Shown: piece by piece, positions 244 to 28,553 of the stretch
How the letters are laid out: every line of letters begins with the position of its first letter
Numbering within the stretch: position 1 is the first letter of the stretch
Origin: a virus
Lineage: Duplodnaviria > Heunggongvirae > Uroviricota > Caudoviricetes
IMG/VR virus record: IMGVR_UViG_2778261056_000006
Coordinates: 1 to 42,371 of that record
Strand: one strand, 5' to 3'
Length of the DNA stretch: 42,371 bases
The notes under the pieces: model-generated
What the model saw: only the letters and a program-made list of their open reading frames with translations
Databases searched by the model: none
What the model was told of the DNA's origin: nothing
Position numbers and translations under genes: made by a program

Positions 244-482
244 CCAACCTGCCCGGGCAGGGAGCGGAGACGGCGCATGCCGGTCATCGCTGTGGCCACG
301 TAGCTCGCCTTTCGGTTCACCACCTCCACCCAGACTTTCACGCCTTCAACCTTCACCGTATAAGTCTCTTTCATCTTGCTTCGCCCATAGTCGCCATATG
401 TTTGCAAGTGAGCTGCCAGCGCGATGTCGCATGCTTGGCGAGCTAAAGGTGATTGCTTACTTCCTCGATTGATCAGTCGCAT
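240..482 (-). CDS. hypothetical protein
   Basis: 80-aa ORF with strong SD (AAGGAG 7 nt upstream of ATG at 482); its stop overlaps the start of the downstream ORF. Confidence 0.45.
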   Translation of the reverse strand: MRLINRGSKQSPLARQACDIALAAHLQTYGDYGRSKMKETYTVKVEGVKVWVEVVNRKASYVATAMTGMRRLRSLPGQVG

Positions 483-520
483 ATAATCTCCTTGAGGGAG
501 GGTTACCCCTCCCGGTCTCG

Positions 521-1644: not shown

Positions 1645-4600
1645 TTATGCCTGAGTACGCAGCGCTTCAAGGCGGCGCAGGTCGAAGTCGTTCAGTTCGT
1701 CGGTGTAGTCAGCAGTGATTGGCGCTGGCCATTCACCTGTGTCGAATCCGGTTGCGATATTGCGCATCGCTTTGCGGTACTCGAGCATACCCAGCTCCAG
1801 TAGTTCAGCGGATGCCTCGATGATGGCGATCCAGTGGTAGTTCTCGTCTTTGTTGACGAAAATCCAGAAGAACTGATCCAGCGCTGCGGTTTCGCAGTAC
1901 ATAGCCGCGCTCAGGTGATAATCACGTTCAATAATTTCCCGGTGTAGCCTGGCGCGCAGGCTTTCCTGCTTAACATTCCACATGCTGATGGTTTTCAGGT
2001 CTGCACCTATACGCACGCCATCCAGGTCGATCTCAAGGTCAGGGCGCACACGAACTTCCAAGCCCGTCTCCTCGTCAAAACCAAAGTAGCTCACCTCAAC
2101 GGCTCGGCTAGGGTGGGTCAGCAGCATGCCGGCGGTCGGGTGTGCCAGAAGCGCTTTTTGAATATTCAGCGCGGTGCTCAGCTGCTGGCGGGTGACCAGC
2201 ACTTTTCCTTCCGGGTTATCGCGCCAGGCATCCAGCAGTTCGTCGGCAAATACGGCATCTGGTTTGACTGCCTTCACGGCCTGGATCATGTCTGCTTTGG
2301 TACCGGACACTTTCAGTGGTGCCGGTTTCTGTGCTTCCTGAGCCACAAGGTCAGGGTTGATGATTGCCAACTGCTCCAGCAGCGCGTCACGGCTGCCGCT
2401 GGTTTTAACCGGCGGCGGCAGGGTGGCGTTGTACTCTTTAATGCATGCCTTCATTGCCGTCGCCGTCTGCTTCTGGTCACCATCAATACGCTGGAAGTCA
2501 GCTGGCAGCGCCATATAGTTCTGTGCCGTTTCTTCCAGGTTAGCGCCAAGCGGAACCTGCGGCGGCAGGGTGGCGTTGTACTCTTCCAGTAACACCTTGA
2601 TGTCGTCGGCAGACAGCAGCGCCGGCAGGCTGGCATTGTGCTCATCGATAAAGGCGCGCAGGGTCGCGGCCGTTGTGAATGCGCCTTCAGGGATCACCGG
2701 TTCAACGCTGAATTCTGCGTCCAGTAGTTCAGGCTGCAACGCCAGCGCATGCACCAAGTTGCCCATGTCCAGCACCGCTGAGCGCTCTTTGACGATGGTT
2801 TTCTCTACGTGGCGCGCATTGAAGTACATCAGCGAAACGCGCGCATCTTTCACCTGGGTTGAGCTGATGCCGTTGGCGGCGTGGTAAACCTCGTTTGGCA
2901 GCCCTTCATAGCGGCCTGGCTCGAAATAAGCGGGATAAACAACAGCCGGTTCGTCAGATTGCGCTTCTGGCTCGGTTTGTGCTGCAACTGGTTCGGTTTG
3001 GCTTACAGAATCGCTATTTTTGGCGACAGAATCCGTATTCTGGTTTACATCGTCCTTCTGGCTGGTATCTGACTCTTCACCAGACTCCAGACTGCTTTCG
3101 CCTGGCTGTACTTCATCACCAGCTTGTTTTTCATCACTGACAGTTTCTTGAACCTGCACATTGCTGGTGGTCTCCGTAGCCTTTTTCGTGCCATGAGTTG
3201 CTGAGTTCTGCAGCAAAGCCGTAACGTCGAATATTCCGTTGCCGACATTTTTAACCAGTTCTTGTTCGACTTTCTGCGGTTGTGCTGCCGCTTCCTCTGC
3301 GCGGCGGCGTGCTCCTTCTTCACGCACGCGTTGCAGGTTCTCTTCGTGAGTGCAGAAGGATTTGCGCGGAGACTCCTTACCTTCAGGTTGGGGAATTTCC
3401 TGTGCTGCGGGTTCAGCCTCATGCAACGGCAATAACTCGACCGCGGAATTGAACGCGGCTGTCATGGTCTGGTTAACAAATTCCAGGTGAGCGACAGGAG
3501 TTAAATGAATATTTTCCGGTGCGATACGTACCAGGTTAAAAATAGCCGTGCGGTTAACACCCAGAACGCCTGGCTGATTGCGCAGGATGTTGCTCCATGA
3601 TTTCCATGGTTCTTCTTTTTTGGTCACGATTTCTTTAGCGCGACGAAGAATGCTGCCCGGGATCTCGAAGTGGTTGAAGTCCATAGGCAGAAGGGCACAC
3701 GCAATCTCTAAATCGAGAGTGTCCAGTGTGTGGTGTGCGTCAGGTCCACGGTCAGTGACGTAACCGCCGTCGGCATTAGTGCCGGAATCAGTACGCTGCA
3801 CACTACTGATGCGATTACCGGCGGCCCATTCGCGAACGAGGATACCGCGGTCGATGTGATCTGTAGCGAACCACAATTTCAAAAACTGGATTAAGGTTGC
3901 GAGTTCAGGGATTTTTCCATCGACAGGGAAGACTTTCTTAACGGCATTCACGACTTTATGAATATCGTGCTCAATGGCTTTTTTGAATGCTTCCACATTC
4001 TCAGCTGCCAGCAGCAGGTTCTGGACGTACGCGTCATCGGTGTCCATCTCAAGGCGGACAATCTCATTTTTCTGCCCTGCGTCGATGTGATAGAGATATT
4101 CACCATCACCGATGAACTGAGCCAGTACGCGCTGGCGGAATGGCAGGGTGGCAACAACGATCAGGTTCGGTTGCTGTGTCTGCTGGGATTGCTCTTCGGT
4201 ATCGACTTCACCATCAACGACGCCACCTTCTGCCCGGCCGTTCTCGTCGGTCTGGATACCGTCCTCAACAGTGAGATCTTGACCCGTTGTAACGTCAGCA
4301 GCGTTGCTGGTTTCAGTTTTGAGCAACTGCAACTTACCACTGCGCCAGTCTTCTACCAGTTGATTGCGGTCACCGGCATCGGTGTTCACCCAGTCAGACA
4401 TGAATGCAGCGATCAATCTTGGTTCGTGCTCTTCGTCTGGTGTGAAAATGTCCTTAACCGCCCGAATCATTTTCCACTCAGCATTCAGGCTGAGTTTGGC
4501 GGTCGCGGGCACATCGTTCCTTGCCACAAGCAGGCTATGGAGATATGTATTGCCTTCATCCAGTGACATTTCGCTGGCAGCCAACTGCTGCTCTTTAGTG

Positions 4601-5034: not shown

Positions 5035-5174
5035 GTGAGATCCTCATTTTTGGGTGTTAGAATCCCCGGACCATTGATAGCGCCCATTGGGTTAACTTTG
5101 GTTTTAATGTTGTTTCCGGTGTAACTTTGGTCGGTGAGGCCGGACATGGCGGGCCCACTTCGGTGGGCTTTCGC

Positions 5175-5720: not shown

Positions 5721-6071
5721 CTAGTGGCTGAGTCCATGCCCCAGACCGTTCAGATAAACTTCAACCAGCAAATCCTTGGTGTAAGTCATCTCCACGCCGC
5801 GATGCAGATACAAACGTCCGCGAGCGTTAGCTGATGCCGTCCAGGTTGAGTCTTTGTGTTTGACGAGCATCCCCGGCTGAACTGCGCCGCGGTTTACCGT
5901 CTGTGTACCGTAGTGCTGATGAACCATGATGTTCTCCACTATTGCTGAGTGAACTTCGCTGGTGGTGCCGTGGTGCTGATCTTCACAGTTGAGCGTTTTA
6001 ACTCTGCAGTTCACCACCGCGAAGCTCACTCTGTGCTTTGCCCTTGTCGCCAGGCTGGCGGAACGTTTCAA
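5721..6071 (-). CDS. hypothetical protein, first gene of leftward operon (Kil-like position); start uncertain
   Basis: 116-aa ORF beginning with TTG; internal ATGs at residues 49 and 68 would give a 68- or 49-aa product; directly downstream of the PL-like promoter. Confidence 0.35.
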   Translation of the reverse strand: MKRSASLATRAKHRVSFAVVNCRVKTLNCEDQHHGTTSEVHSAIVENIMVHQHYGTQTVNRGAVQPGMLVKHKDSTWTASANARGRLYLHRGVEMTYTKDLLVEVYLNGLGHGLSH

Positions 6072-6550: not shown

Positions 6551-7154
6551 TATTCTGAGGTGCAGGTGCAGGTGCAGGTGCAGGTGCAGGTGCAGGTGCA
6601 GGTTGTATTATCTCGACAGGTTTTAGATGAGATTGCACTTGGGGCAACGCGAGAATTACGGCAAGCAATGCTAAAATGGCACCAACCATCCACTGAAGAG
6701 TGGCTGATGTCGTCTTTAAACCATCGATCTGCCCTTTTAATCCTTCGATTTGTCCTTTTAGGCCAGTAAACTCACCATTAACCCCTGAAATCTGAGCTTT
6801 AATTTCCGACATAGAGGTATTCATTGCAGAAAACTGCTGCGCTTGAAAGGCCCTAAATTCAGCCATTTCACGCCGCATCTCGGCGGCCACTACATCCACC
6901 TCTGCTTTGTTCTGAGCAAACTTGGCGTCAAGTTCTTCCCTTGAGATACCCACAGCATCTACCTCAGCATCTTCGCCTTTAACAATGGTTTGACTTTTAG
7001 ATAATGGATTCGTTCTACTTTTCCCCATTTTTGTTAAAATCGGGTTTTTCGGTCGAATATTTACCACATCCGCTTTTTCATGATATGCGGGCATGTGAAA
7101 TGCGTCAACTTTGACGTCAGGCGACGAGGTTTTGCGAATTGAGGCTCCATCCAC
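6543..7154 (-). CDS. membrane-anchored coiled-coil protein with C-terminal (Pro-Ala)n tail
   Basis: 203 aa; heptad-like GLKGQIEGLKGQIDGLK, one predicted TM helix (WMVGAILALLAVILAL), then PAPAPAPAPAPAPAP encoded by a hexanucleotide repeat; GTG start at 7154 (alternative ATGs at residues 21 and 43). Confidence 0.55.
   Translation of the reverse strand: MDGASIRKTSSPDVKVDAFHMPAYHEKADVVNIRPKNPILTKMGKSRTNPLSKSQTIVKGEDAEVDAVGISREELDAKFAQNKAEVDVVAAEMRREMAEFRAFQAQQFSAMNTSMSEIKAQISGVNGEFTGLKGQIEGLKGQIDGLKTTSATLQWMVGAILALLAVILALPQVQSHLKPVEIIQPAPAPAPAPAPAPAPQNSK
6559..6602. repeat. hexanucleotide microsatellite (GGTGCA)7 = minus-strand (CCTGCA)n encoding (Pro-Ala)n
   Basis: Seven perfect tandem copies read directly from sequence, inside the 3' end of the 6543-7154 CDS. 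Confidence 0.9.
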
Positions 7155-7159
7155 TTAAA

Positions 7160-7465
7160 TTAATCCTGCTTTTTAAGTTCGCGCTCAAAGGGTTCAATGA
7201 GACCCGGATCCATAACAGTAGCATTAAGTATTGCTTGAGCCATGTTTTTTGCCATAGACATTGGTAGAGTGACTGAACTAGTAGCCTCAAGAAACATATT
7301 CACCCCAGCTTCAGTATTCGTTTCATCAGGAATGTTCAAGTTGTCGACCACATGTCTACAAAAAGTAATGTGGCAATAGGCATTATCTCCGACATTCATT
7401 CCAGTAGTTATAAAAACATCCGCAAATCCAGCGTTGTAGTCTTTAGATTTTTTGATTTCTGGCAT
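7160..7465 (-). CDS. hypothetical protein
   Basis: 101-aa ORF with SD AAGGAG upstream of ATG at 7465; co-oriented with the repressor genes. Confidence 0.55.
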   Translation of the reverse strand: MPEIKKSKDYNAGFADVFITTGMNVGDNAYCHITFCRHVVDNLNIPDETNTEAGVNMFLEATSSVTLPMSMAKNMAQAILNATVMDPGLIEPFERELKKQD

Positions 7466-7505
7466 ATCTCACTACTCCTTCATTTTAAGATGAAATTGTC
7501 TTGCA

Positions 7506-7916
7506 TTATTCCATATCACCCTTAATCCGCCGCCCCATATACTTGGCGTACAGTTCATCGAGTTCTTTCAATCGTAGAGATACGATCCGCAACATGTTCT
7601 GTTGTTCTTCTTCGTTTGGGAGTTGATTATAGAGTTCCAACAGTCTCCGTTCGTCGTGTCTCAAACCGTCCTTAGCATCCACGTCCTGACCTAGAACCCA
7701 CTCAAGACTTACGCCTAGCGCATCGGCAAGTTTTATTGCTGAGCTTTTTCCTATCGCTCCTCTGACAAACCAGTTGTTGACTGATTGTGCGCTCACACCA
7801 CAGATTCTCGCTATATCCGCTTTGGATATGCGCTTCTTCTCGATGATTTCATTTAACCGCCGAACCTGCGGGTTATCTGTTTGGTGTGTGTTTTTTCTCA
7901 TGTACAAGAGTATCAC
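7506..7916 (-). CDS. XRE-family HTH regulator, paralogue of the prophage repressor
   Basis: N-terminal HTH (ISKADIARICGVSAQSVNNWF), C-terminal segment nearly identical to the adjacent repressor (LELYNQLP.EEEQQNM.RI.SLRLKELDELYAKYM.RRI.GD); ORF starts at GTG 7916, first ATG at 7901. Confidence 0.65.
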   Translation of the reverse strand: MILLYMRKNTHQTDNPQVRRLNEIIEKKRISKADIARICGVSAQSVNNWFVRGAIGKSSAIKLADALGVSLEWVLGQDVDAKDGLRHDERRLLELYNQLPNEEEQQNMLRIVSLRLKELDELYAKYMGRRIKGDME

Positions 7917-7920
7917 TTAG

Positions 7921-8304
7921 CTAATCAGCATCGCCCCTGATTCTGCGATTCATGTACTTGGCATATAGTTCATCGAGTTCCTTCAGACGCAGGGAGAAGA
8001 TCCTTATCATATTCTGCTGTTCTTCTTCCGGTAACTGTCTGTAGAGCTCCAGAATACGTTGTTCATCAGGCTTAAGGCCATCCTTCTCTCCAACATCCTC
8101 ACCAAGTAGCCAGGGGACGGATACCCCAGCAGCATCAGCAACCGCTAATGCAGAACTTTTGCTGATTCTTCCTGTTTTGAACCAACTGGAAACAGCTTGC
8201 TTACTGACGCCAGCAACCCTGGCCATCTCTGTTTTAGAGAAACCTTTCCGGTTCAGTTCTGTAAGCCTGGAGATCAGCCCAGTAGTCATTGTGTTTTCGC
8301 TCAT
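7921..8304 (-). CDS. CI-like prophage repressor (short XRE-HTH type, no S24 peptidase domain)
   Basis: HTH (FSKTEMARVAGVSKQAVSSWF) plus C-terminal oligomerisation-like domain; divergent from the Cro-like gene across an operator region; in-frame ORF extends to 8388 but that would bury the operators in coding sequence, so ATG 8304 (or 8289) is the likely start, possibly leaderless. Confidence 0.6.
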   Translation of the reverse strand: MSENTMTTGLISRLTELNRKGFSKTEMARVAGVSKQAVSSWFKTGRISKSSALAVADAAGVSVPWLLGEDVGEKDGLKPDEQRILELYRQLPEEEQQNMIRIFSLRLKELDELYAKYMNRRIRGDAD

Positions 8305-8313
8305 TTCACTAGT

Positions 8314-8330
8314 GTAAATGATTGCTTTAC
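8314..8330. promoter_or_regulatory. operator site OR-a (GTAAATGATTGCTTTAC)
   Basis: 17-bp dyad GTAAA-N5-GCTTTAC, one of three copies in the window, just upstream of the repressor start. Confidence 0.55.
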
Positions 8331-8351
8331 CAGTAGGTAGGCATTCATTGA

Positions 8352-8380
8352 TTGACTCATTGGTAAAATGATGCTTTACT
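8352..8380 (+). promoter_or_regulatory. PR-like rightward promoter overlapped by operator OR-b (GTAAAATGATGCTTTAC at 8363-8379)
   Basis: TTGACT(8352-8357)-17 bp-TTTACT(8375-8380), followed by SD AAGGAGG and ATG 8402; operator overlaps spacer and -10. Confidence 0.6.
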
Positions 8381-8401
8381 TTTTCCATCTAAGGAGGTCC
8401 T

Positions 8402-8626
8402 ATGACTGGTATTGAGAAAGCTATTCAAAAGTTTGGCACAGGTGCGGCACTCGGAAGAGCGCTTGGATTTTCAAAAATGACAATTTCCAACTGGAAGAAA
8501 ACTGGCATTCCGCCCGATCACATTCGCTCTGTTTTTGAGCTTACGGGAGTCACCCCGCATGAGTTGCGGCCTGACTTATATCCCAATCCAACCGATGCCT
8601 TACCAGTGCAAGAAACGAGGGCATAA
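8402..8626 (+). CDS. Cro-like HTH regulator (YdaS-type)
   Basis: 74 aa; HTH (AALGRALGFSKMTISNWKK) and HELRPDLYP motif typical of Rac YdaS-type Cro analogues; strong SD; divergent from repressor. Confidence 0.7.
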   Translation: MTGIEKAIQKFGTGAALGRALGFSKMTISNWKKTGIPPDHIRSVFELTGVTPHELRPDLYPNPTDALPVQETRA

Positions 8627-12137: not shown

Positions 12138-12587
12138 ATGACAACTAACCACCCGGCGCACGGTCATGTATCACTCGATCGCCTGCACCAGATACGCGAA
12201 ATACTCAGCAACGCAGCAGCACAAAGCGACGGCGGTAATCTCGGCTACGCAATGGCTGATGCTGTGAAGGTGATTGATGGAGTTCTGGAGTCGATGGCCC
12301 GTGAGCAAGTACGCCGTGAGCATGCTACATGGTCACAGGCTACTTTCGGCGATGTCGGTCCAGTTGGTCCGCTGAAGCACCTTTCCAAAGAAGCGCTCGA
12401 GGCGGCAGCTGAACCAAGTGACCTTACCGAATGGGCTGACATGCAATTCCTGTTATGGGATGCGCAACGTCGTGCCGGTATCAGTGATGAGCAGATTACC
12501 CTGGCGATGGTAGAAAAGTTGGCGGTTAACAAACAGCGCGAATGGCCTGAGCCGAAAGATGGTGAGCCGCGTCTGCACATCAAGTAG
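12138..12587 (+). CDS. DUF550 / MazG-like nucleotide pyrophosphohydrolase-type protein
   Basis: 149 aa; C-terminal EWADMQFLLWDAQRRAGISDEQITLAMVEKLAVNKQREWP resembles the DUF550 domain common in enterobacterial prophages. Confidence 0.45.
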   Translation: MTTNHPAHGHVSLDRLHQIREILSNAAAQSDGGNLGYAMADAVKVIDGVLESMAREQVRREHATWSQATFGDVGPVGPLKHLSKEALEAAAEPSDLTEWADMQFLLWDAQRRAGISDEQITLAMVEKLAVNKQREWPEPKDGEPRLHIK

Positions 12588-12640
12588 ACTCTTATGGATA
12601 ATTGAACCCTAATTCATTATGAACATAATAAGGAGTCCTT

Positions 12641-12961
12641 ATGTCTTACATAATGCCTGAAAAAGGCCAAATGAATGAATATGGAATTGAGGCTTTCGGG
12701 ATCCCGCTTACCAGTAGGCATGGAGTTGCGATGGAACTGTCTCAAATGCTACGTTTTTCTTACTATGTAGCTTCAGTTGGGCTTGTAAAATGTATTGAAA
12801 GTGTCTTCTATGATTCAGGCTCTTGCTGCTGTAATTTTGAATTTATTCCCGGGTTTAATGAGTATTCGGAGGAGGCAGAAAAAATTAGACAGTGCGCGCT
12901 ACGTTCGATTGGGCAATTTGAATGGTTCGGTATGATTGAACACGGCGACATCAACGGCTAA
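12641..12961 (+). CDS. hypothetical protein (AT-rich island)
   Basis: 106-aa ORF with SD AAGGAG, in visibly AT-rich DNA, followed by its own intrinsic terminator. Confidence 0.5.
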   Translation: MSYIMPEKGQMNEYGIEAFGIPLTSRHGVAMELSQMLRFSYYVASVGLVKCIESVFYDSGSCCCNFEFIPGFNEYSEEAEKIRQCALRSIGQFEWFGMIEHGDING

Positions 12962-12989
12962 GTGTTTAACTCCAATAGCAAACGAATAA

Positions 12990-13014
12990 AAGCCTCTAAG
13001 TTAGAGGTTTTTTA
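12990..13014 (+). terminator. intrinsic terminator
   Basis: Stem CCTCTA/TAGAGG with 4-nt loop followed by T5. Confidence 0.6.
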
Positions 13015-13216
13015 TGTCTGAAAGGTAGCATTACCAAGTCTATGGTTGCCTAGCTCAGTCAGGCTTGTATTTGGTTGCTTAGCAATCAACTCATGCGACA
13101 TGAGCGGGATCTTTCTAATCATCATTTTCGGTAAATGATTTTGGTTGCTTGGTTGACAAAATCGAGAAAATGCGAAAATATATGGTTTACGAATTCCAAA
13201 AAAAGCGAAACTTGAA

Positions 13217-13867
13217 ATGAGCGACAACCAGTTAGCACCTTGTTGGGAATTTCAGCCTTACCTTGCTGAAAGCAATGTTCGTCAGTTGTTAGCGGAAATT
13301 GCTAATGTACTCGAGCAATTGTACTACCACAAACACACACTGGACAGTAACTGGTCCGAAGGTGTAAGGGCTTATGATTGGGTCAGAAATCATTTGATTC
13401 AAAGTGAAGGGACACTGCCGGGTCTGGAAATGGTTTCGAAGGGACTGGATTATGTGGTTGCGTTAAATAAAGTGCCGCTGCAGTTCTCCAAAGATTGCAT
13501 TAATAACCCGAAGAAGAAGCATCGCCTTCTTCGAAATAGGGTGGAGCATGAGCAACTTTCATTGTTCGGTGAAACTGAAGCCGAGCAAGATATTACATGG
13601 CGGATCATCGCCGAACCATTTTTATCCGATGAAGAAGATGGCGAGCTGGAATCAACATTGCCTCGCTGGGAAGTGGCTTTAGTTGGGTTTAACGCATATG
13701 GTGCCCAGATCAGTATGGTTTCACACCAATCTACTGCTTCAGCGCCGCTTATGTCTCTTGATACCAACACTCTTCCGGATGAAGCTGAGATTGGCAAAGC
13801 CTCTCTTCGCCGCCGTAAAAAAGATCAAGATTTGGATGTGAGCAGTAATGGAACATCAAGTGAATGA
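13217..13867 (+). CDS. unknown protein, candidate effector/toxin partner of the downstream HTH-peptidase
   Basis: 216-aa ORF with no motif I recognise; 3' end overlaps the next gene by 20 nt; preceded by TTGACA -35-like element and 12-bp direct repeats TTTGGTTGCTT. Confidence 0.55.
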   Translation: MSDNQLAPCWEFQPYLAESNVRQLLAEIANVLEQLYYHKHTLDSNWSEGVRAYDWVRNHLIQSEGTLPGLEMVSKGLDYVVALNKVPLQFSKDCINNPKKKHRLLRNRVEHEQLSLFGETEAEQDITWRIIAEPFLSDEEDGELESTLPRWEVALVGFNAYGAQISMVSHQSTASAPLMSLDTNTLPDEAEIGKASLRRRKKDQDLDVSSNGTSSE

Positions 13868-14951
13868 CTTTGCTGAGTATCGTGGGGATAAGCTCAAATT
13901 AGCCAGAATGGCTGTTGGGCTCTCCTGCGAAGAGTTAGCGGAGAAAATTGGTAAAACAAAACAATTCGTTAGCAAATTGGAAAAAGGGTTTAAACCATCA
14001 GAACAGTTGTTAGAATTAATCTCATCTGCGCTGATGATTAAATCTGATTTCCTATTTACTGAACGAAAATATGCTTTAGAAAGCGATGTTTGCCATTTTC
14101 GGAGTAAAAAATCGAGAACCCAAACATTAACCAATAGTGTTCTGGCAAGGGCGGAGATTCTTAACATTATAATCTCTGCCGTTGAGGGAGAAATCGAGTT
14201 TCCTGATGTTTTCATACCTGAGCACCCCGGTGCTGAATTGCTGACTCCAAATGATATTGAACGTGTAGCGGAAGACTGCAGAAGAGCATGGAACTTAGGG
14301 CTGGGACCTATATCCTCAATGGTCAAACTGGCTGAGAGTTTGGGGGTTATTGTTGCTCATGTGACAGGAGTGGATGACCGCGTAGATGCTTTTACTGTTC
14401 ATAACAACAGGCCAGTAATCATCCGAAATAACGTCAAAAAGAGTATATGCAGATTCCGATCAGATTTAGGTCACGAATTGGGGCACTTGGTTATGCACGA
14501 AGGTATAACCACAGGAGATAAAGTGACTGAATCGCAAGCGGATCGTTTTTCAAGCGCGTTGCTAGTTCCTCGATTGTCCTTTATTAAAGAGTTTCCCCGT
14601 ATACGAGGAAGACAGTTCGATTGGAACGCCCTAGTTGAGTTTAAGCTTCGGTGGAAGATTAGTCTTAAAATGTGCATTTACCGAGCAACAACTCTAGGCC
14701 TGCTGACGCAGGAGCAGGCAAGAACAGGTTATATGCATTTGAACTCTAAAGGATATACGAAAGTTGAACCAGGAGATGAATTTATTCGCCCGGAAGAACC
14801 GAGTATGTTAGCTGAGGCGATTGAAATGCTGGATGATGCAACATGGATGAGCATTCTCATGAAAACTGGTTTAAGCCAGGAGTTGGTTAGGGAGTTATTC
14901 TCGGTAAACCGCCCACTGTCAAATCCAAGAAATCTACTTCAACTGGTTTGA
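13848..14951 (+). CDS. fused XRE-family HTH + ImmA/IrrE (COG2856, Peptidase_M78-type) zinc metallopeptidase
   Basis: 367 aa; N-terminal HTH (LKLARMAVGLSCEELAEKIGKTKQFVSKLEKG); HExxH zinc motif HELGHLVMH in the C-terminal domain. Confidence 0.8.
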   Translation: MEHQVNDFAEYRGDKLKLARMAVGLSCEELAEKIGKTKQFVSKLEKGFKPSEQLLELISSALMIKSDFLFTERKYALESDVCHFRSKKSRTQTLTNSVLARAEILNIIISAVEGEIEFPDVFIPEHPGAELLTPNDIERVAEDCRRAWNLGLGPISSMVKLAESLGVIVAHVTGVDDRVDAFTVHNNRPVIIRNNVKKSICRFRSDLGHELGHLVMHEGITTGDKVTESQADRFSSALLVPRLSFIKEFPRIRGRQFDWNALVEFKLRWKISLKMCIYRATTLGLLTQEQARTGYMHLNSKGYTKVEPGDEFIRPEEPSMLAEAIEMLDDATWMSILMKTGLSQELVRELFSVNRPLSNPRNLLQLV

Positions 14952-14967
14952 CTCAAAGCTTGTAATA

Positions 14968-14994
14968 AACCCGCTATATGCGGGTTTTTTCTTT
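14968..14994 (+). terminator. intrinsic terminator
   Basis: CCCGC-tatat-GCGGG followed by T6. Confidence 0.7.
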
Positions 14995-15113
14995 CTGGTA
15001 GCGCGCTGTGGTAACGCTGTGCCTCCAGCGCTCGCTGAGGCGCTGGTGCGTGCTAATTTGCCGGAGCTTTGTCAGCAGAAACAAATAGCGGCGTAATAAA
15101 ACATTGCTAATTC

Positions 15114-15141
15114 AACCCGCTACGGCGGGTTTTCTTTTTTT
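15114..15141 (+). terminator. second intrinsic terminator with the same stem sequence
   Basis: CCCGC-tacg-GCGGG followed by TTTTCTTTTTTT; coordinates approximate. Confidence 0.6.
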
Positions 15142-15203
15142 AATACTGACAGAAAATTAACAATTTGTGCTCTTAAAACGTTGATCATTTCCGTGCATAG
15201 GTA

Positions 15204-15223
15204 TACTGTATAAAAACACAGTA
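15204..15223. promoter_or_regulatory. LexA box (SOS operator) upstream of dinI homologue
   Basis: TACTGTATAAAAACACAGTA, a near-consensus CTGT-N8-ACAG site, 19 nt upstream of the dinI ATG and overlapping the likely -10. Confidence 0.8.
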
Positions 15224-15241
15224 CATGCAATGGAGGCTATT

Positions 15242-15475
15242 ATGAAAGTTGAATTAACCATTGATCGCATGAAAGAACTTCCTAAAGGCGCAGTACCAGC
15301 ACTGGAGAAAGAACTGCTTAAGCGCCTGAATGATCACTATGACAATTGCAGGCTCACAATCCGCCGTGCCGGGTCCGATGGGTTAAGTGTTTTTGGTGGT
15401 GACAAGGACGATAAAAAGAAAATTGAATCAATCCTCCAGGATACCCGGGAAAGCGCTGACGACTGGTTTTATTAG
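15242..15475 (+). CDS. dinI: DinI-family protein
   Basis: 77 aa from ATG 15242 (SD GGAGG 5 nt upstream); aligns along its length with E. coli DinI (…LSV.G..K.DK..I..ILQ.T.ESADDWF). Confidence 0.85.
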   Translation: MKVELTIDRMKELPKGAVPALEKELLKRLNDHYDNCRLTIRRAGSDGLSVFGGDKDDKKKIESILQDTRESADDWFY

Positions 15476-15478
15476 AAT

Positions 15479-15505
15479 TGCGCTTAAGGCTGGCGCGCAT
15501 TTTTC
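15479..15505 (+). terminator. possible weak terminator after dinI
   Basis: TGCGC...GCGCA stem with long loop followed by T5; weak. Confidence 0.3.
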
Positions 15506-17295: not shown

Positions 17296-17429
17296 CATTC
17301 GAATCCTATTTTGCCGATCACCTCCGCGTTCGTTGGCAACGATTGCGCTTATACCACTTTCCGGGCTCTGTGCTGACGGATTACCGAATACTGAAGAACT
17401 ACATCAAAACCATAGGCGGTGCAGTATGA
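17292..17429 (+). CDS. small ORF between ninG and Q (45 aa), absent from ORF track
   Basis: ATG 17292 overlaps the ninG stop (ATGA), strong SD AGGAGG 4 nt upstream, stop overlaps the Q-like start (ATGA); MTFESYFADHLRVRWQRLRLYHFPGSVLTDYRILKNYIKTIGGAV. Confidence 0.35.
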   Translation: MTFESYFADHLRVRWQRLRLYHFPGSVLTDYRILKNYIKTIGGAV

Positions 17430-18115
17430 ATACTCAATTTCTCGAATACGTGCGCCAGCAGTTGATGGTGGCCACCGCCGATTTAAGTGGTGCGACGAAA
17501 GGGCAGTTGATGGCGTGGCTTGAAAACGCGCAGTTCGATACGGGAACGTTTAAACGTAAAAAGCCTCGAGTGCTGGATGAAGTGACCGGGGAAATGATTA
17601 CGCTGGATAACCCGCCAATACCGGGCAAGCAGTCGCATGCCAAGGGTTCGCATATTCCCCTGGTGCAGCCGGTTGAATACTCCAGCGCATCGTGGCGCCG
17701 CGCACTGATGTCACTCGAAGAACACCAGAAAGCGTGGCTGCTATGGAACTATAGCGAGAACGTGCGCTGGTGCTATCAGGTGGAAATCACTCAATGGGCG
17801 TGGGCAGAGTTCCGGGAGCAGCTCGGCGCGAAGAAGGTGGCCGGCAAAACGATGGAGCGCCTGAAGAAGCTTGTCTGGCTCGCGGCTCAGGACGTGAAAG
17901 CAGAGCTGGCAGGGCGTGAGATGTACGAATATCAGGCGCTGGCGTCGCTGGTTGGCGTAACGCCAAAAAACTGGTCAGAGACCTTTACTGACCGCTGGGT
18001 TGAGATGCGCAGCATCTTCCTGCGACTGGATAGCGGGGCTTTATTGCAGGTTACGCGATCACGTTCACAACAAAAGGCGACAAATTTAGACTCAAGTCTT
18101 GCAAAACTGGATTGA
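17426..18115 (+). CDS. putative late-gene antiterminator (Q-like)
   Basis: 229 aa from ATG 17426; synteny (after ninG, before a promoter/terminator pair and the lysis genes); no Zn-finger Cys cluster, so family is uncertain. Confidence 0.5.
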   Translation: MNTQFLEYVRQQLMVATADLSGATKGQLMAWLENAQFDTGTFKRKKPRVLDEVTGEMITLDNPPIPGKQSHAKGSHIPLVQPVEYSSASWRRALMSLEEHQKAWLLWNYSENVRWCYQVEITQWAWAEFREQLGAKKVAGKTMERLKKLVWLAAQDVKAELAGREMYEYQALASLVGVTPKNWSETFTDRWVEMRSIFLRLDSGALLQVTRSRSQQKATNLDSSLAKLD

Positions 18116-18180
18116 AACGCATATATTTCATGTAAATCTGATATCGTCGCCATAGCTTCGTAGGTCGACAAAGAATTAAG

Positions 18181-18207
18181 AACCCGCCATCGAGCGGGTT
18201 TTTTGTC
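18181..18207 (+). terminator. intrinsic terminator downstream of Q-like gene
   Basis: CCCGC-catcga-GCGGG followed by T6. Confidence 0.65.
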
Positions 18208-18304
18208 GAAACTTTGTTTTTATATTTGGATTGTTACGTGCATCAAAAAAGATGATGAATAATCCAAAAAAGCCGTTTTTATGAGCTTTTAATCCCTTTT
18301 TTAC

Positions 18305-18334
18305 TTGTCAAATCTGTAATTGACTCGCTATAGT
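18305..18334 (+). promoter_or_regulatory. candidate late promoter (PR'-like)
   Basis: TTGTCA-18 bp-TATAGT, about 35 nt upstream of a terminator hairpin; resembles the lambda PR'/tR' arrangement. Confidence 0.35.
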
Positions 18335-18365
18335 CTGTTTAGTTCTTTATCAAAAAGACTCTTTT

Positions 18366-18392
18366 AAAGCCTCGTTTTGAGGCTTTTCGTGT
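18366..18392 (+). terminator. tR'-like terminator shortly downstream of candidate late promoter
   Basis: AAGCCTC-gtttt-GAGGCTT followed by T-rich tract. Confidence 0.5.
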
Positions 18393-18473
18393 ATTTAAAG
18401 ACCGTAAATCACTACATCTTGTGTTTGTTGTTTTGTTTTTGAGCTAGATGTAGCTATAACGAGGGACAAAATC

Positions 18474-18674
18474 ATGGGCGCTGCAGAATTTTACGAAAAA
18501 GTAGGTATTAAATCAGAGGAACTCCATAAAGGTGAATCTGTACAACACTATGCTATGCGCGTTCTTGCTCAGCAAGACGACCAGGCTATACGTAGTGGTG
18601 TTCTATACTCCTACAGCACTGTAAGTTCAGTTGAAGCTGTAGAGCAACAATCTCATCAACTGTACTCATATTGA
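18474..18674 (+). CDS. hypothetical small protein (Q-lysis moron)
   Basis: 66-aa ORF with SD GAGGG, in AT-rich DNA. Confidence 0.45.
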   Translation: MGAAEFYEKVGIKSEELHKGESVQHYAMRVLAQQDDQAIRSGVLYSYSTVSSVEAVEQQSHQLYSY

Positions 18675-18686
18675 TAAAAGAAGAAC

Positions 18687-19586
18687 ATGCCAAATTGGAT
18701 AGACGTGTTGGGCGAGATGGGTACTATTGCTCAACGTACACCAGCGGATGAGGTTCGCCACAAGTACTTACGAGAGTTGTCGAAGCATACAGGCCGAAAC
18801 GTAATTTCATATTACTCAGGCTTCCTCCAGAAGGGGGGGCCTGGGTTGCAGCATTTAATACAAATGTCAGATGACGATAAAAATGGTCTTATGTCAGCCA
18901 TTAACGGCTTAGACACGTCATTAGGGCTGGATATCTTGCTTCATACCCCAGGGGGAGATATTGCAGCATTGGAATCTATTGGTCATTATCTTCGTTCAAA
19001 ATTTGGGACCAATATCCGGGCAATTGTTCCTATGATCTCAATGAGTTGTGGGACCATGTTGGCTTGCTGTGCCGAACAGATTGTATTGGGCAAACAGTCA
19101 AATTTGGGGCCAATTGATCCGCAGCTTGGTGGTTTATCATCTCATGCGATCATAGAAGAGTATGAGCGAGCTAAGAAAGAGATTTCTGAAAATGCTGCAG
19201 CGATCCAATGGTGGCAATTTACTCTTCAAAAGCTAAACCCGACTCTCATTGGTGAATGTGAAAAGGCTATTGTTTGGGCTAATGAAATAGTACAAAAATG
19301 GCTGTGTACTGGTATGTTTGCAGGTCATGCTAACGCTCAAGATAAGGCTAAGCGAATTTGTGATGAGCTAAACAATCATCATACAACCTATGCGCATGCT
19401 AGACATATTCATCTGGATAAAGCGCAAAGCATTGGTTTGAACATTATGGAGCTGGAGAGCGACCAAACTCTGCAGGATCTTGTGCTGACTATACATCATT
19501 GCTACATGCATTCATTTGGTACGAGTCCTGCTGCGAAAATTATTGAAAATCATAATGGCAGCACGATGATGTGGAATATTCGCTAA
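18687..19586 (+). CDS. SDH-family ClpP/crotonase-fold serine protease
   Basis: 299 aa; LHTPGGD motif and overall pattern typical of S49/SDH ClpP-fold peptidases; sits between Q and the holin. Confidence 0.6.
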   Translation: MPNWIDVLGEMGTIAQRTPADEVRHKYLRELSKHTGRNVISYYSGFLQKGGPGLQHLIQMSDDDKNGLMSAINGLDTSLGLDILLHTPGGDIAALESIGHYLRSKFGTNIRAIVPMISMSCGTMLACCAEQIVLGKQSNLGPIDPQLGGLSSHAIIEEYERAKKEISENAAAIQWWQFTLQKLNPTLIGECEKAIVWANEIVQKWLCTGMFAGHANAQDKAKRICDELNNHHTTYAHARHIHLDKAQSIGLNIMELESDQTLQDLVLTIHHCYMHSFGTSPAAKIIENHNGSTMMWNIR

Positions 19587-19609
19587 ACGATATATCCTCG
19601 AATCACATA

Positions 19610-19636
19610 AGGCCACCTTCGGGTGGCCTTTTTTAT
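19610..19636 (+). terminator. intrinsic terminator
   Basis: 7-bp stem GGCCACC/GGTGGCC with UUCG tetraloop, followed by T7. Confidence 0.8.
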
Positions 19637-19680
19637 TCCCCTCATTCCTGAGAGGACTCACAGCAATAAGAGGGGGCTTA

Positions 19681-20076
19681 ATGTCCGATCCTGTTTCTGG
19701 CACTACGGTCGCGGCTGGTGGCCTGATGGTAGCCAGCGTATTTGGTCTTGCAACCGGTATTGATTATGGCGTGGTATTTGGCGCATTCGCTGGTGCAGTA
19801 TTTTATGTAGCGACAGCGGCAAATATCACACGAGTACGATTGATTGCTTACTTCATGACGTCATTCATTGTTGGCGTTCTTGCCGCTGGACTGGTGGGTT
19901 CAAAGCTGTCACAGGCTACCGGGTATAGTGACAGACCATTAGACGCACTTGGTGCTGTTGTAGTGGCGGCGATGACAATCAAAGTGCTCACATTTTTCAA
20001 CAGTCAGGATTTGGGAAGCCTGTTCAGTATTCTTTCGCGATTCCGTGGAGGAGGGGCCAGCAATGGTAACAAGTGA
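19681..20076 (+). CDS. holin (three predicted TM segments)
   Basis: 131-aa hydrophobic protein heading the lysis cassette; SD AGAGGGGG. Confidence 0.6.
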   Translation: MSDPVSGTTVAAGGLMVASVFGLATGIDYGVVFGAFAGAVFYVATAANITRVRLIAYFMTSFIVGVLAAGLVGSKLSQATGYSDRPLDALGAVVVAAMTIKVLTFFNSQDLGSLFSILSRFRGGGASNGNK

Positions 20077-20344
20077 TCCGTCAGCGATGGTGAATGCAGG
20101 TATTTGTGCGGTCATCGTCCTTGTCCTGATGTTCTACCAGCGTGAAGGGGCAAGACATCGCCCCGCTATATCATTGCTGGCGTACTTCGTTGTGCTGGTT
20201 TATGCCAGCGTTCCATTCCGATATCTGTTCGGCCTCTACCAGGAGTCACACTGGATGGTGGTCATCGTAAACCTTCTTATTTGCGCTGCCGTGTTATGGG
20301 CTCGTGGGAATGTGGCGCGTCTCGTTGATACGCTGAGGCATTAA
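20063..20344 (+). CDS. second holin-like membrane protein
   Basis: 93 aa from ATG 20063 (SD GGAGGAGGGG), three hydrophobic segments, immediately upstream of the endolysin. Confidence 0.5.
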   Translation: MVTSDPSAMVNAGICAVIVLVLMFYQREGARHRPAISLLAYFVVLVYASVPFRYLFGLYQESHWMVVIVNLLICAAVLWARGNVARLVDTLRH

Positions 20345-20961
20345 TGAACCAATCACAATTTCAACAGGCGGCTGGTGTAAGCGCCGGGTTAGCTACGCGC
20401 TGGTTTCCGCACATTGACGCGGCAATGAAAGAGTTCGGCATTGTTAAGCCTGAAGACCAGGCAATGTTTATTGCTCAGTCAGGACATGAATCAGCGGGAT
20501 TCTCTGCGCTGGTGGAGAGCTTCAACTACACCCCAGCCGCTCTGCTGACCACATTTGGACGCCGCATTACGAACTATCAGGCATATATGCTTGGGCGTGA
20601 CAAAGAAAAAGGGCACGTAGCCAATCAGCCAGCCATTGCAAATCTGGTGTACAGCAATCGCCTCGGTAACAAAGCATCAGGCGATGGGTGGAAATATCGT
20701 GGCCGTGGGCTGATTCAGATTACCGGTCTTGATAATTACCGCCGCTGCGGAACGGGATTAAAACTGGATTTAGTCAGTAATCCTGAGTTGCTGGAAAAGG
20801 ATATCAACGCGGCACGTTCAGCTGCATGGTTCTACGCCACCAGCGGATGCCTGAGCTATTCCGGCGATCTGGTTCGCATCACCCAGATCATCAATGGTGG
20901 ACAGAACGGCATTAACGACCGTCGTGCACGCTACGCCAAAGCAAAAGCCGCACTGGTATGA
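20344..20961 (+). CDS. endolysin, glycoside hydrolase family 19 (chitinase-like lysozyme)
   Basis: 205 aa; AQSGHESAGF...YRGRGLIQITGLDNY pattern characteristic of GH19 phage endolysins. Confidence 0.8.
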   Translation: MNQSQFQQAAGVSAGLATRWFPHIDAAMKEFGIVKPEDQAMFIAQSGHESAGFSALVESFNYTPAALLTTFGRRITNYQAYMLGRDKEKGHVANQPAIANLVYSNRLGNKASGDGWKYRGRGLIQITGLDNYRRCGTGLKLDLVSNPELLEKDINAARSAAWFYATSGCLSYSGDLVRITQIINGGQNGINDRRARYAKAKAALV

Positions 20962-26053: not shown

Positions 26054-27690
26054 TGAATAAAGTACAGATACTGGGCTCTGATGGGCAGCCGTTGCGACAG
26101 CAGCGTCCCTCTATGCTGGTGGGGGGGAGCCGCGTACCTTATGACGCAGCTGACTCTTTCAGCGATCAACTGGCGAACTGGCAACCCGCGCTGTGGTCCC
26201 CGGACAATGAAATTAACATTTACCGGGATCGCATCGTGTCCCGCGCACGCGATCTGGTCCGTAATGACGGCTGGGCAAACGGTGCGGTCACACGTCTGCT
26301 GGATAATGCGGTTGGTGCCAACTTCCGCCCCATCATGAAACCCGATTACCGTGTTCTCAGAATGATCACCGGAAACAAGGCGTTTGATGCGTCCTGGGCG
26401 GAAGAGTACGGAAAAGCACTGGACGGGCACTGGCGGACCTGGAGTAACGATCCTGGCCGGTATTGTGATGTTGAACGAAAACTCACCGTGTCGCAGATGT
26501 TACGCCTGGGATTTCGTCACAAGCTTATTGACGGGGATGCTCTGGCCATTCTCCAGTACAGAACTGACAGGCTTGGTCCCGGAAGAGGGCGTTACGCCAC
26601 CACGGTACAGATTGTCGATCCTGACCGCCTCAGTAATCCTCAGCAGAATTTCGATATGCCAAATGTCCGTGGTGGCGTTGAAATTGATGCGGACGGTGCG
26701 CCGGTTGCTTACCACATCAGGGAGGCCCATATCGGTGACTGGTGGAGCGGGGCTAAAACCATGACGTGGCAGCGTATCCCGCGTGAAACTGACTGGGGCC
26801 GCCCGCATGTGGTTCACGATTTTGATCATGAGCGTGGCGCGCAGCACCGTGGTAACGGCATCCTGACTCCGGTTATTCAGCGTCTGAAAATGCTGGTGAA
26901 GTATGACCAGAGTGAGCTTGAGGCAGCAATTCTTAATGCCATATTTGCCGCTTACATTGAGTCACCCTATGACCCTGCGATGGTTCAGTCTGCCCTGGGC
27001 GAGACCTATGACGAGTCGGAGTTAGGCACTTATCAGGACGGGCGTGTTGAGTTCCATAACGATCGGCGTCTGACACTTCAGAATGGTGCCCGAATGCCCA
27101 TTCTTTATCCTGGTGAGAAAATCACGACGGTTAACGCGGCGCGGCCCTACAGCAATTTTGAAGTCTTCGAATCTGCTGTTCTCCGTAATTTTTCTTCAGG
27201 AACAGGGTTGTCCCCACAGCAGGTCACCCAGGACTGGTCTGACGTTAACTACAGTTCTGCACGCTCCTCGTTGCTGGAGGCATGGAAAACACTGACTCGC
27301 CGCCGGGACGATTTTTCTACCGGCTTCGCTCAGCCCATTCTCACCGCCTTTGTTGAAGAAGTTCACGACAATGAGGATTTACCCCTGCCCGCAGGCGCAC
27401 CTGATTTTGTTGACGCCAGAGCCGCGTATTCTCGCGCGCGCTGGATGGGGCCAGGGCGCGGCTGGGTGGATCCGGTTGCAGAGAAAAAAGGCGCCATTCT
27501 TGGTCTGGATGCCGGACTTTCCACCCTCGAGATTGAGGTGGGTGAAAACGTCGGTGAAGACTGGGAAGAAGTGCTTGATCAGCGCCAGAGAGAAATTGAG
27601 TCATGTCTTAAACGCGGATTACCGCTTCCGAGCTGGGCACAGGCTGACCAGTTTGCGAGCCAGACCATTACCGATCCGGAGGAAAAGTGA
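26053..27690 (+). CDS. portal protein (lambda gpB family)
   Basis: 545 aa; ARDLVRNDGWANGAV and LEAAILNAIFAAYIESPYD align with lambda B. Confidence 0.85.
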   Translation: MNKVQILGSDGQPLRQQRPSMLVGGSRVPYDAADSFSDQLANWQPALWSPDNEINIYRDRIVSRARDLVRNDGWANGAVTRLLDNAVGANFRPIMKPDYRVLRMITGNKAFDASWAEEYGKALDGHWRTWSNDPGRYCDVERKLTVSQMLRLGFRHKLIDGDALAILQYRTDRLGPGRGRYATTVQIVDPDRLSNPQQNFDMPNVRGGVEIDADGAPVAYHIREAHIGDWWSGAKTMTWQRIPRETDWGRPHVVHDFDHERGAQHRGNGILTPVIQRLKMLVKYDQSELEAAILNAIFAAYIESPYDPAMVQSALGETYDESELGTYQDGRVEFHNDRRLTLQNGARMPILYPGEKITTVNAARPYSNFEVFESAVLRNFSSGTGLSPQQVTQDWSDVNYSSARSSLLEAWKTLTRRRDDFSTGFAQPILTAFVEEVHDNEDLPLPAGAPDFVDARAAYSRARWMGPGRGWVDPVAEKKGAILGLDAGLSTLEIEVGENVGEDWEEVLDQRQREIESCLKRGLPLPSWAQADQFASQTITDPEEK

Positions 27691-28553
27691 ATCTACCCCA
27701 TCTGGCCCAGCGATTATTTAACACCCCGCTGGCGCTGCACCCGAGTAAAGCCGAAGTCATCATGGCATCCGTAATGGACCGATTTGGTATCAGTAAAATC
27801 GAATCTTCTCTTGCCATGGAGGATGACTGGTACGGATATGACGATAACCGGGGACGTGAATCCCGTAGTGATCCGGGTTATGACAATGTGCTGGGTGTCG
27901 CCGTCATCCCGATATGCGGAACGCTGGTGCAAAAACTGGGCAGTCTGCGTCCGTACAGTGGAATGACAGGGTATGACGGCATTCGTCAGGCGTTTCTTAC
28001 TGCGATGGAAGATCCCGACATTTCGGGCATTTGCCTGGATATCGACTCACCCGGCGGCGAGGTCGCTGGATGCTTCGATCTGGTTGATGTCATTTACGGC
28101 TCCCGGGGGAAAAAGCCTATCCATGCCATTCTGACGGAAAGCGCTTATTCCGCTGCGTATGCCATTGCCAGTGCAGCGGACCGGATTTCTGTTCCGCGCA
28201 CCGGCGGAGTGGGTTCTGTGGGTGTGATCACCATGCACCTTGACTGGACGCAGCGGATTAAAGATGACGGTCTTAAAGTTACGATCATCACCTATGGATC
28301 CCGCAAGGCTGAAGGTTCGCCGCTGAGAGAGTTGTCAGATGAAGCTCTGGCCGCCATCCAGCAGGACATTAACACCATGGGCGAATTGTTTGTGAACACT
28401 GTTGCCAGAAACCGGGGGATTAGCGCAAAGGTTATAAAAAGTACCCAGGCCGCCTGTTTTATGGCTGCTGATGGCGTTGAAATTGGACTGGCTGATGAGG
28501 TGTGTCCTCCTGACGCTGCGTTCAAAAACTTACTTGAAAAAACAGGAGCCTGA
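27687..28553 (+). CDS. head maturation protease (S49 / ClpP-fold, gpC-like)
   Basis: 288 aa; DIDSPGGEV motif; position after portal; GTG start with SD GGAGG. Confidence 0.8.
   Translation: MNLPHLAQRLFNTPLALHPSKAEVIMASVMDRFGISKIESSLAMEDDWYGYDDNRGRESRSDPGYDNVLGVAVIPICGTLVQKLGSLRPYSGMTGYDGIRQAFLTAMEDPDISGICLDIDSPGGEVAGCFDLVDVIYGSRGKKPIHAILTESAYSAAYAIASAADRISVPRTGGVGSVGVITMHLDWTQRIKDDGLKVTIITYGSRKAEGSPLRELSDEALAAIQQDINTMGELFVNTVARNRGISAKVIKSTQAACFMAADGVEIGLADEVCPPDAAFKNLLEKTGA

Follow-up and report, generated by a model that had tools for sequence, protein, structure and literature searches.

A mobile prophage cassette encoding a predicted SDH-type ClpP-fold serine protease and a conserved small partner protein at a Q-lysis junction

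Accessory cargo units known as morons occupy the slot between the Q antiterminator gene and the lysis genes of lambdoid phages, and SDH proteases, named after the Ser, Asp, His order of their catalytic residues, form a described serine protease family. In Gifsy-1, isrK lies directly 3' of the Q-like gene antQ and transcription passes the isrK terminator into the downstream genes (PMC4825925). The stretch of DNA analysed here, referred to as the window, is a 42,371-nucleotide (nt) Escherichia coli prophage (IMG/VR record IMGVR_UViG_2778261056_000006), and its Q-lysis slot holds a cassette of two open reading frames (ORFs) encoding a 66-amino-acid (aa) protein and a 299-aa protease of the SDH type. 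The protease family, the moron concept and the RefSeq name of this exact protein (SDH family Clp fold serine proteinase) were already known; for the obligate small partner, the structured leader and the breadth of the pairing, no description was found in the literature searched. The cassette comprises the following features.

18205-19636, + strand: inserted accessory cassette (moron), delimited by the identity breakpoints with the ET881 and TST3 prophages; lowest GC content of the window
18305-18334, + strand: predicted cassette promoter TTGTCA-18-TATAGT, 10 of 12 positions as in the consensus; conserved in related cassettes
18366-18392, + strand: leader hairpin P1, terminator-like, an 8-bp stem (hairpin 18366-18386) followed by UUUUCGUGUAUUU
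18412-18453, + strand: leader element P2, arms CTACATCTTGT (18412-18422) and GCTAGATGTAG (18443-18453) enclosing a variable loop of some 20 nt, immediately before the Shine-Dalgarno sequence
18474-18674, + strand: ORF of the 66-aa partner; phrog_25714, profile match
18687-19586, + strand: ORF of the 299-aa SDH-type protease with predicted ClpP fold; PF01972, candidate triad Ser120, Asp144, His237
19609-19636, + strand: cassette terminator with a UUCG loop on a GC-rich stem of 9 bp (hairpin 19609-19630) and a U tract

The two ORFs, the HTPGGD motif of the protease (residues 86-91) and the strong UUCG-loop terminator closing the unit had all been named in the initial annotation, made from the letters of the window, and all were found.

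The protease and its small partner

The 299-aa protein matched the Pfam family PF01972 (SDH_protease) with 76.6 bits (gathering score 31.3), its residues 22-253 aligning with positions 35-244 of the 286 in the profile, and phrog_11747 with an E-value of 9e-127. The NCBIfam equivalog NF047768 (Clp_like_SDH) was matched with 91.3 bits, and since this lies under its 250-bit cut-off the protease was assigned to a distinct subfamily. Ser120 is found in the context M-S-x-G-T, Asp144 in G-P-x-D-P-Q and His237 in H-x-R-H. In alignments of 22 and of 32 homologues, the latter 52-82 % identical to the window protease, the invariant positions were His86-Thr-Pro-Gly-Gly, Met119-Ser120, Gly141-Pro-x-Asp144-Pro, His237-x-Arg239-His240 and His270-His271. 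Asp144 aligns with the catalytic His of ClpP (I-H-Q-P in ClpP, I-D-P-Q here). Ser120, Asp144 and His237, invariant in both alignments, form an intact candidate catalytic triad, in keeping with the protease assignment made initially.

An AlphaFold2 model of the protein was obtained with a predicted local distance difference test score (pLDDT) of 88.7 and a predicted template modelling score (pTM) of 0.85. ClpP was the best match of the model in both fold searches (Foldseek E-value 2.5e-4, TM-score about 0.6 on the target), and the protease is predicted to adopt a ClpP/crotonase-like fold to which a further, helical domain is added at the C-terminus (residues 152-280 of the model). A sequence search of the PDB with the protease returned no match at E-values up to 1. 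The initial proposal of an SDH-type protease with a ClpP fold was thus borne out by a PF01972 score above the gathering score and by the ClpP-like model. No signal peptide or transmembrane segment was predicted in the protease or in its partner, and the protease is predicted to be cytoplasmic.

The ORF of the 66-aa protein, predicted to be acidic and soluble, is separated from the protease ORF by 12 bases. A single-sequence search with this protein gave only four clusters, and tblastn gave no phage record, which suggested an orphan; this view was overturned by a profile search. About 160 loci of protease relatives were inspected, and in most of them an ORF of 55-75 aa was situated directly upstream of the protease gene, the gap between the two usually measuring -8 to +14 nt. 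The clearest members served as the seed of a partner profile, which was then iterated over 11,520 ORFs of 176 loci. All 121 matches at E < 1e-3 adjoined the protease gene on the same strand, 108 of them upstream and 13 downstream (the latter mainly in Clostridia-type loci), with none elsewhere, and the ORF of the window was detected at an E-value of 4e-8 prior to its inclusion in the profile. The partner was detected in 119 of the 167 loci with sufficient upstream DNA. Judged by these matches, the 66-aa ORF, which had been called an unknown in the initial annotation, is a conserved and obligately adjacent partner of the protease.

The ratio of non-synonymous to synonymous substitution rates (dN/dS) of the partner gene was 0.04-0.24, indicating purifying selection. 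A HMMER search of 1.84 billion representative sequences yielded 215 clusters at E <= 1e-3, nearly all of 52-80 aa, and neither a Pfam domain nor a name was found among the members of the family. The core of the partner reads F/Y-x3-G-I, F/Y-A and G-V-x-Y-S-x-[GS]-T, followed in enterobacteria by the C-terminus L-Y-[ST]-Y. Across the whole family the pattern consists of an N-terminal F/Y-x3-(G/N)-I/L, a central F/Y-A, in most clades F-K-K/R-C-S/T-I/L, then V/I-x-Y-S/T-x-S/T-S/T with a nearly invariant Tyr, and lastly a variable tail. Modelled alone, the partner was poorly ordered (pLDDT 61) with a disordered tail at residues 50-66. No fusion of partner and protease occurred among 302 retrieved proteins, the long matches being over-extended ORF calls. 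In one partner homologue (P0262, 169 aa as called) the conserved core is duplicated in tandem, CSILEYKQIYYSS then SILEYKQISYSSSTS.

In a Pseudomonas clade the two genes are spaced more widely, 52-72 nt apart (Pseudomonas simiae locus L006 at about 5950-5985, also L007, L008, L149 and L151), and a GC-rich hairpin followed by a T run (AAAAGCCCGG...CCGGGCTTTTTT) lies between them. This hairpin looks like an internal attenuator and, being terminator-like and placed between the genes, it would favour an excess of the partner.

Protease relatives are numerous, with more than 7,800 found at E <= 1e-5 in the protein database, and the pairing with the small partner extends over bacteria, archaea and phages. 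Members about 50 % identical were found in Pseudomonadota (E. coli), Clostridia, Planctomycetota, Verrucomicrobiota (Akkermansia), Patescibacteria and Methanosarcinaceae, a range that implies frequent horizontal transfer.

Insertion, distribution and expression signals of the cassette

The surroundings of the cassette in the window are listed below.

17429-18115, + strand: Q antiterminator gene (PF06323, E-value 1e-101; phrog_304), outside the cassette
18099-18127, + strand: Q-proximal predicted sigma-70 promoter TTGCAA-17-TATATT, 9 of 12 in the promoter scan, overlapping the Q stop codon
18131-18203, + strand: isrJ/isrK-type short RNA of 73 nt (Rfam RF01393), with intrinsic terminator stem 18183-18198 and U tract 18199-18204
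19681-20344: two holin genes, 3' of the cassette
20344-20961: GH19 endolysin gene, 3' of the holins

Copies of the region 99.9-100 % identical to the window are present in seven complete genomes, for example strain 2022CK-00450, where they adjoin kch. This gene stands next to the prophage integration site (window 1-1213). The borders of the insert were fixed by comparison with related prophages. The ET881 prophage shares the early genes, Q and the isrJ element with the window, and its 99 % identity stops at 18204. TST3 carries the same holins and GH19 endolysin and no cassette, and its identity (97.7 %) begins at 19636. In the probiotic strain E. coli Nissle 1917 the segment corresponding to about 18260-19637 is matched at 80 % nucleotide identity, and there the cassette is located after the prophage's own Q gene and before a methyltransferase gene and different lysis genes. 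In both TST3 and Nissle the edge of the cassette falls directly after the terminator. Strain KFu022 (locus L176) has a decayed relative at the same kch site, with a truncated RecE fused to a Q remnant, in which the isrJ-type element and the lysis genes are kept.

The GC content of the cassette (18205-19636) is 0.408 and that of the window 0.511, while Q and the lysis genes have 0.546 and 0.515, respectively; the cassette value is the minimum among all 1432-nt windows of the prophage. Patchy presence, a conserved predicted promoter, a terminator and this deviating GC content together mark the unit as a moron. Both the AT-rich moron placed in the Q-lysis slot by the initial annotation and its status as accessory cargo were upheld, close relatives without the insert being represented by ET881, TST3 and KFu022. 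Other low-GC stretches (0.39-0.46) of the prophage are found at 12501-15500, 7001-8500 and 35001-36500 and may be further accessory inserts; the first of them holds ead/Ea22-like, DUF550 and HTH/ImmA-like genes according to the annotation of an identical prophage locus (L001). Another RNA match, to Rfam isrB (RF01386, 38.2 against a gathering score of 35), lies at 5076-5173 on the + strand, in the early-left region near the RecE and RecT genes.

Of 5426 complete E. coli genomes, only 28 were found to hold most of the region, and many of these are Nissle derivatives. Beyond Nissle, the cassette is present in Mu-like, Proteus, Pseudomonas, Porphyromonas and Gordonia phages. It occupies the Q-lysis slot in lambdoid prophages and the space from Mor or C to the lysis genes in Mu-like prophages; in viral contigs it comes after Q proteins from three unrelated families and ahead of holins from five families. 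Elsewhere it was found beside an integrase and a tRNA gene, after tail fibre genes, beside HicAB and, in a Gordonia phage, after the tail genes, and further protease pairs have Fic and YafQ genes or resolvase and RadC genes as neighbours. The closest copy of the protease in plasmid records (NZ_CP083847.1, 12162-13015, a 42.9-kb 'plasmid' of Enterobacter asburiae; 92 % identity in four alignment pieces, with no annotated gene) may be a disrupted one on a phage-plasmid.

The cassette promoter TTGTCA-18-TATAGT was the top sigma-70 match in the region. Since the promoter scan as a whole gave results no better than chance (5 sites against 3.7 +/- 1.9 expected), this promoter is supported instead by the way it is conserved among related cassettes. 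Its hexamers and their spacing to the leader hairpin were conserved in 35 of 35 distinct enterobacterial, Proteus and Aeromonas cassettes, the proteases of which are 58-94 % identical to the window protease. The leader, about 130 nt long, has a common layout among these 35 sequences: TTGTCA, TTGTAT or TTGCAA with TATAGT or TATATT, the GC-rich U-tract hairpin P1, the motif CGTATCT, and P2. The consensus of P2 is an inverted repeat, CTACATNTNGT, about 20 nt, then ACTANATGTAG, immediately 5' of the Shine-Dalgarno sequence. In four of the compared loci (L016, L131, L135 and L140) the spacer separating the -35 from the -10 hexamer, about 60-70 nt 5' of P1, contains TGTGGATAA, which is the DnaA-box consensus in reverse complement; the spacer of the window promoter, TGTAATTGA, agrees with it only in part.

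The two leader helices were assessed by covariation analysis in an alignment of 31 leaders, with partners slid by 1-3 columns and 500 shuffles as controls. Standard pairs were formed in 91 % of the cells of P1 and P2, against 26-54 % in the slid controls. The covariation score was 0.333 (shuffle mean 0.164) and 62 cells showed compensatory changes (21.9 in shuffles), both values being reached by none of the 500 shuffles. Pairs changed on both sides numbered 8 against a shuffle mean of 7.0, a count reached by 162 of the 500 shuffles and so no better than chance; the support for P1 and P2 is therefore drawn from the percentage of paired cells, the number of compensatory cells and the covariation score. 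In P1 95.6 % of the cells were paired, with compensatory changes in four of seven pairs (CCUC/GAGG, CUCC/GGAG, CCCGC/GCGGG). In P2 the value was 88 %; pair 107-136 appeared as AU, GC, CG, GU and UG, and pair 104-139 as CG or UA. Both helices were recovered by RNAalifold alone, and a scan of the cassette leader against Rfam gave only sub-threshold chance matches. The G-U and U-G pairs of P2 favour an RNA hairpin rather than a DNA element; with arms so strongly conserved in sequence, P2 may also be a palindromic DNA operator.

The same leader signals accompany the cassette beside Q proteins of the families PF06323, PF03589 and PF06530, after Mor in an Aeromonas Mu-like prophage, and at a Proteus prophage end, where the cassette is convergent with tail-fibre genes. 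From this distribution the promoter at 18305 and the hairpin at 18366 are taken to be the predicted signals of the cassette itself, and as such they would free its expression from the need for Q. Read-through by Q-modified polymerase from upstream into the cassette is nevertheless plausible. The promoter and hairpin named in the initial annotation were found (10 of 12 positions; 18366-18386), and only the Q-linked late role given to them did not stand.

Proposed role of the pair and competing explanations

The architecture, the conserved leader and the varied surroundings make it very probable that the cassette is a mobile accessory module of two genes provided with expression signals of its own. 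That the partner acts directly on or with the protease is also probable. A conflict or defence role of the pair is a tentative proposal with somewhat less than an even chance of being right. The best overall explanation, favoured by a little over even odds, is an autonomous mobile cassette in which the partner is the cognate regulator of the protease and the two together form a conflict module.

Such a module might work as follows. The partner would be produced first and in excess, and would keep the protease latent; most likely it would be a pseudo-substrate inhibitor or else a substrate, docking by way of its conserved V-x-Y-S-x-S/T segment and flexible tail. In the lysogen, weak transcription would start at the cassette promoter and most transcripts would end at P1, acting as an attenuator. 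During lytic growth Q-modified polymerase reading through from upstream could raise transcription of the cassette. The pair could then behave as a toxin-antitoxin-like or abortive-infection-like module favouring the prophage, for example by excluding other phages. A wider version of this explanation, in which the pair is a very widespread proteolytic conflict system of two components, shared by bacteria, archaea and their phages, is rather doubtful; in it, infection or stress would remove the partner and the freed protease would cleave host or invader proteins, resulting in aborted infection or exclusion of the rival.

Several observations speak against these proposals. His237 of the candidate triad is located in a low-confidence loop of the AlphaFold2 model, and P2 is missing from the minimum-free-energy fold of the single window sequence. 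In 48 of the 167 loci no partner was detected by the profile, yet a small ORF bearing a variant of the motif is present in many of them. When PADLOC-DB 2.0 was searched with the two proteins, neither matched a family at E-values up to 1. Across diverse genomes the 150 nearest neighbours were mixed and contained no constant third gene; a few restriction-modification, Gabija GajB-like helicase, defence-associated reverse transcriptase (DRT), integrase and resolvase matches were counted among them with no baseline, which does not establish an enrichment in defence islands. Only about four close copies were present in 72,556 plasmid records, and such rarity on plasmids is uncharacteristic of classic addiction modules. 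No DNA-binding fold could be recognised in the partner, which sets it apart from typical type II antitoxins, and the literature searched held no functional account of the protease family or of the pair. As to neighbouring genes, an Aeromonas hydrophila Mu-like prophage (locus L009) has a TIR_2 domain gene at 3784-4578 on the opposite (-) strand just upstream of Mor and the protease pair, possibly a neighbouring defence moron, and a type II hammerhead ribozyme (RF02276, 68.5 bits) at 2707-2776 (+) among its small early genes.

In the main alternative the pair would consist of true late genes, expressed solely by Q antitermination and helping the lytic cycle through lysis timing, processing of phage or host proteins, or counter-defence. 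In lambdoid and Mu-like prophages it has the orientation of the late operon and directly precedes the lysis genes, and the terminator-like hairpin 3' of the cassette promoter would be overridden by a Q-modified polymerase. On the other hand, the copy at the Proteus prophage end is convergent with tail-fibre genes and a Pseudomonas copy with an integrase gene, so no late transcript arrives there, and chromosomal and archaeal copies have no phage genes nearby. The cassette has a conserved promoter of its own and near-identical phages dispense with it. Since copies exist beyond the reach of any late transcript, a helper function in the lytic cycle was weakened as an explanation and is regarded as unlikely.

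It is still less probable that the protease matures a small precursor, the partner, into a short signalling or antimicrobial peptide. Obligate adjacency to the protease, a core that is conserved and a disordered tail that is variable and rich in Ser and Thr, and an L-Y-S/T-Y C-terminus strictly kept in enterobacteria would suit such a precursor. Against it, both proteins are devoid of a signal peptide or transmembrane segment, no conserved third gene for a transporter, receptor or modifying enzyme accompanies them, and the tail after the core differs between clades.

The wiring proposed in the initial annotation, in which 18305 is the Q-dependent late promoter, 18366-18392 is tR' and the pair constitutes the first late genes, was favoured by the strength of the promoter match and by the position of the hairpin about 35 nt later, as for a late promoter and its terminator. 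A better candidate for the Q-linked unit was found at 18099-18204, directly 3' of Q. There the Rfam isrJ model RF01393 was matched over its full length (58.7 bits, gathering score 37, positions 1-75 of the 75 in the model), with a weak match to isrK (RF01394) at the same site, 18131-18203; the isrJ match begins 4 nt 3' of the -10 hexamer of the Q-proximal promoter. The stretch of about 90 nt containing this promoter and the isrJ-type RNA is kept beside the related Q of the Nissle prophage and in Enterobacter, Klebsiella and Gifsy-1 phages without the cassette, and in the ET881 prophage the 99 % identical Q and isrJ-type stretch are followed directly by other lysis genes.

Judged from sequence, 18099-18127 is probably the late promoter, the predicted pR' equivalent of this Q type, and 18131-18203 looks like a tR'-like element giving a short terminated late-promoter transcript. 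The pR'/tR' equivalent was placed there and not at the 18305 site because an isrJ-type unit is conserved beside this type of Q and because transcription reads through isrK in Gifsy-1. The signals at 18305 and 18366 are conserved with the cassette beside three unrelated Q families, in Mu-like prophages and at prophage ends, that is also at sites without a Q gene, which contradicts their link to Q; the Q dependence of expression deduced from placement is thus not required. Lambdoid Q proteins are specific for their own promoter, and signals found beside unrelated Q families therefore fit poorly with this specificity. The original wiring is accordingly held to be very improbable. The corrected wiring bears on the reading of lambdoid Q-lysis junctions generally, where an isrJ-type late promoter unit may have to be told apart from the own promoter and attenuator-like leader of a moron.

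A structural or assembly role in prohead maturation, hinted at by weak sub-threshold likeness to ClpP-related head maturation models (NF045542, E-value 0.0049; phrog_53, E-value 0.0084), was rejected as highly improbable, since a separate lambda-type S49 head protease with no significant BLASTP similarity to the cassette protease is encoded next to the portal gene (27687-28553) and the cassette is not part of the head gene cluster, is missing from close relatives and is also found in non-phage surroundings, all in agreement with the non-structural nature attributed to the protease from the start.

Through the pairing, what had been a solitary 'hypothetical protease' becomes a defined system of two parts open to direct testing, with a copy available in the probiotic E. 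coli Nissle 1917. If the wider conflict system proved true, protease-based immunity or addiction modules would gain a new class, and the enterobacterial form of the system would have a new structured cis-regulatory leader. As a defence or exclusion module the pair would add a ClpP-fold protease effector to prokaryotic immunity and would be of relevance to phage therapy and to the stability of engineered Nissle strains.

Comparison with described proteases, toxin-antitoxin modules and morons

The protease resembles the SDH_protease family PF01972 in its score above the gathering score, in the Ser, in the Asp at the position of the ClpP His (G-P-x-D-P-Q) followed by a downstream His, and in the predicted ClpP fold. 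It differs in having a small partner, which is absent from the descriptions of the family that were found. ClpP, SppA (S49) and NfeD/STOPP are 10-17 % identical to it in sequence and have a different order of catalytic residues. Unlike ClpP, SppA and NfeD, the window protease has no ATPase partner and no membrane anchor, and it carries the extra C-terminal helical domain (152-280). Its partner, a soluble protein of about 60 aa, is unrelated to stomatin or SppI.

With type II toxin-antitoxin and abortive infection modules the cassette shares a compact pair of genes, the small upstream one being tightly coupled or overlapping and the order occasionally inverted. Like them it is patchily distributed, horizontally transferred and found in the accessory slots of prophages, with HicAB, YafQ, Fic or TIR genes as occasional neighbours. 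This resemblance is one of genetic layout only, and the cassette departs from these modules in its lack of a PADLOC match and its rarity on plasmids. The Lit protease of e14 is an example of a protease acting in abortive infection, and we know of no ClpP-fold toxin.

In comparison to other Q-lysis morons and to Gifsy-1, the cargo here is a protease pair and not a toxin, antirepressor or methylase, and the cassette leader matches no Rfam family; IsrK itself acts in trans. As in other Q-lysis morons, the cargo is an AT-rich unit with its own promoter and terminator. The antQ-isrK-orf45-anrP region of Gifsy-1 occupies the same slot and has an isrJ/isrK-type terminated RNA directly after Q, as does the window (PMC4825925). 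Within the cassette, the succession of a predicted promoter, a short terminated leader, a small ORF and an effector gene is similar to the layout of isrK-orf45-anrP.

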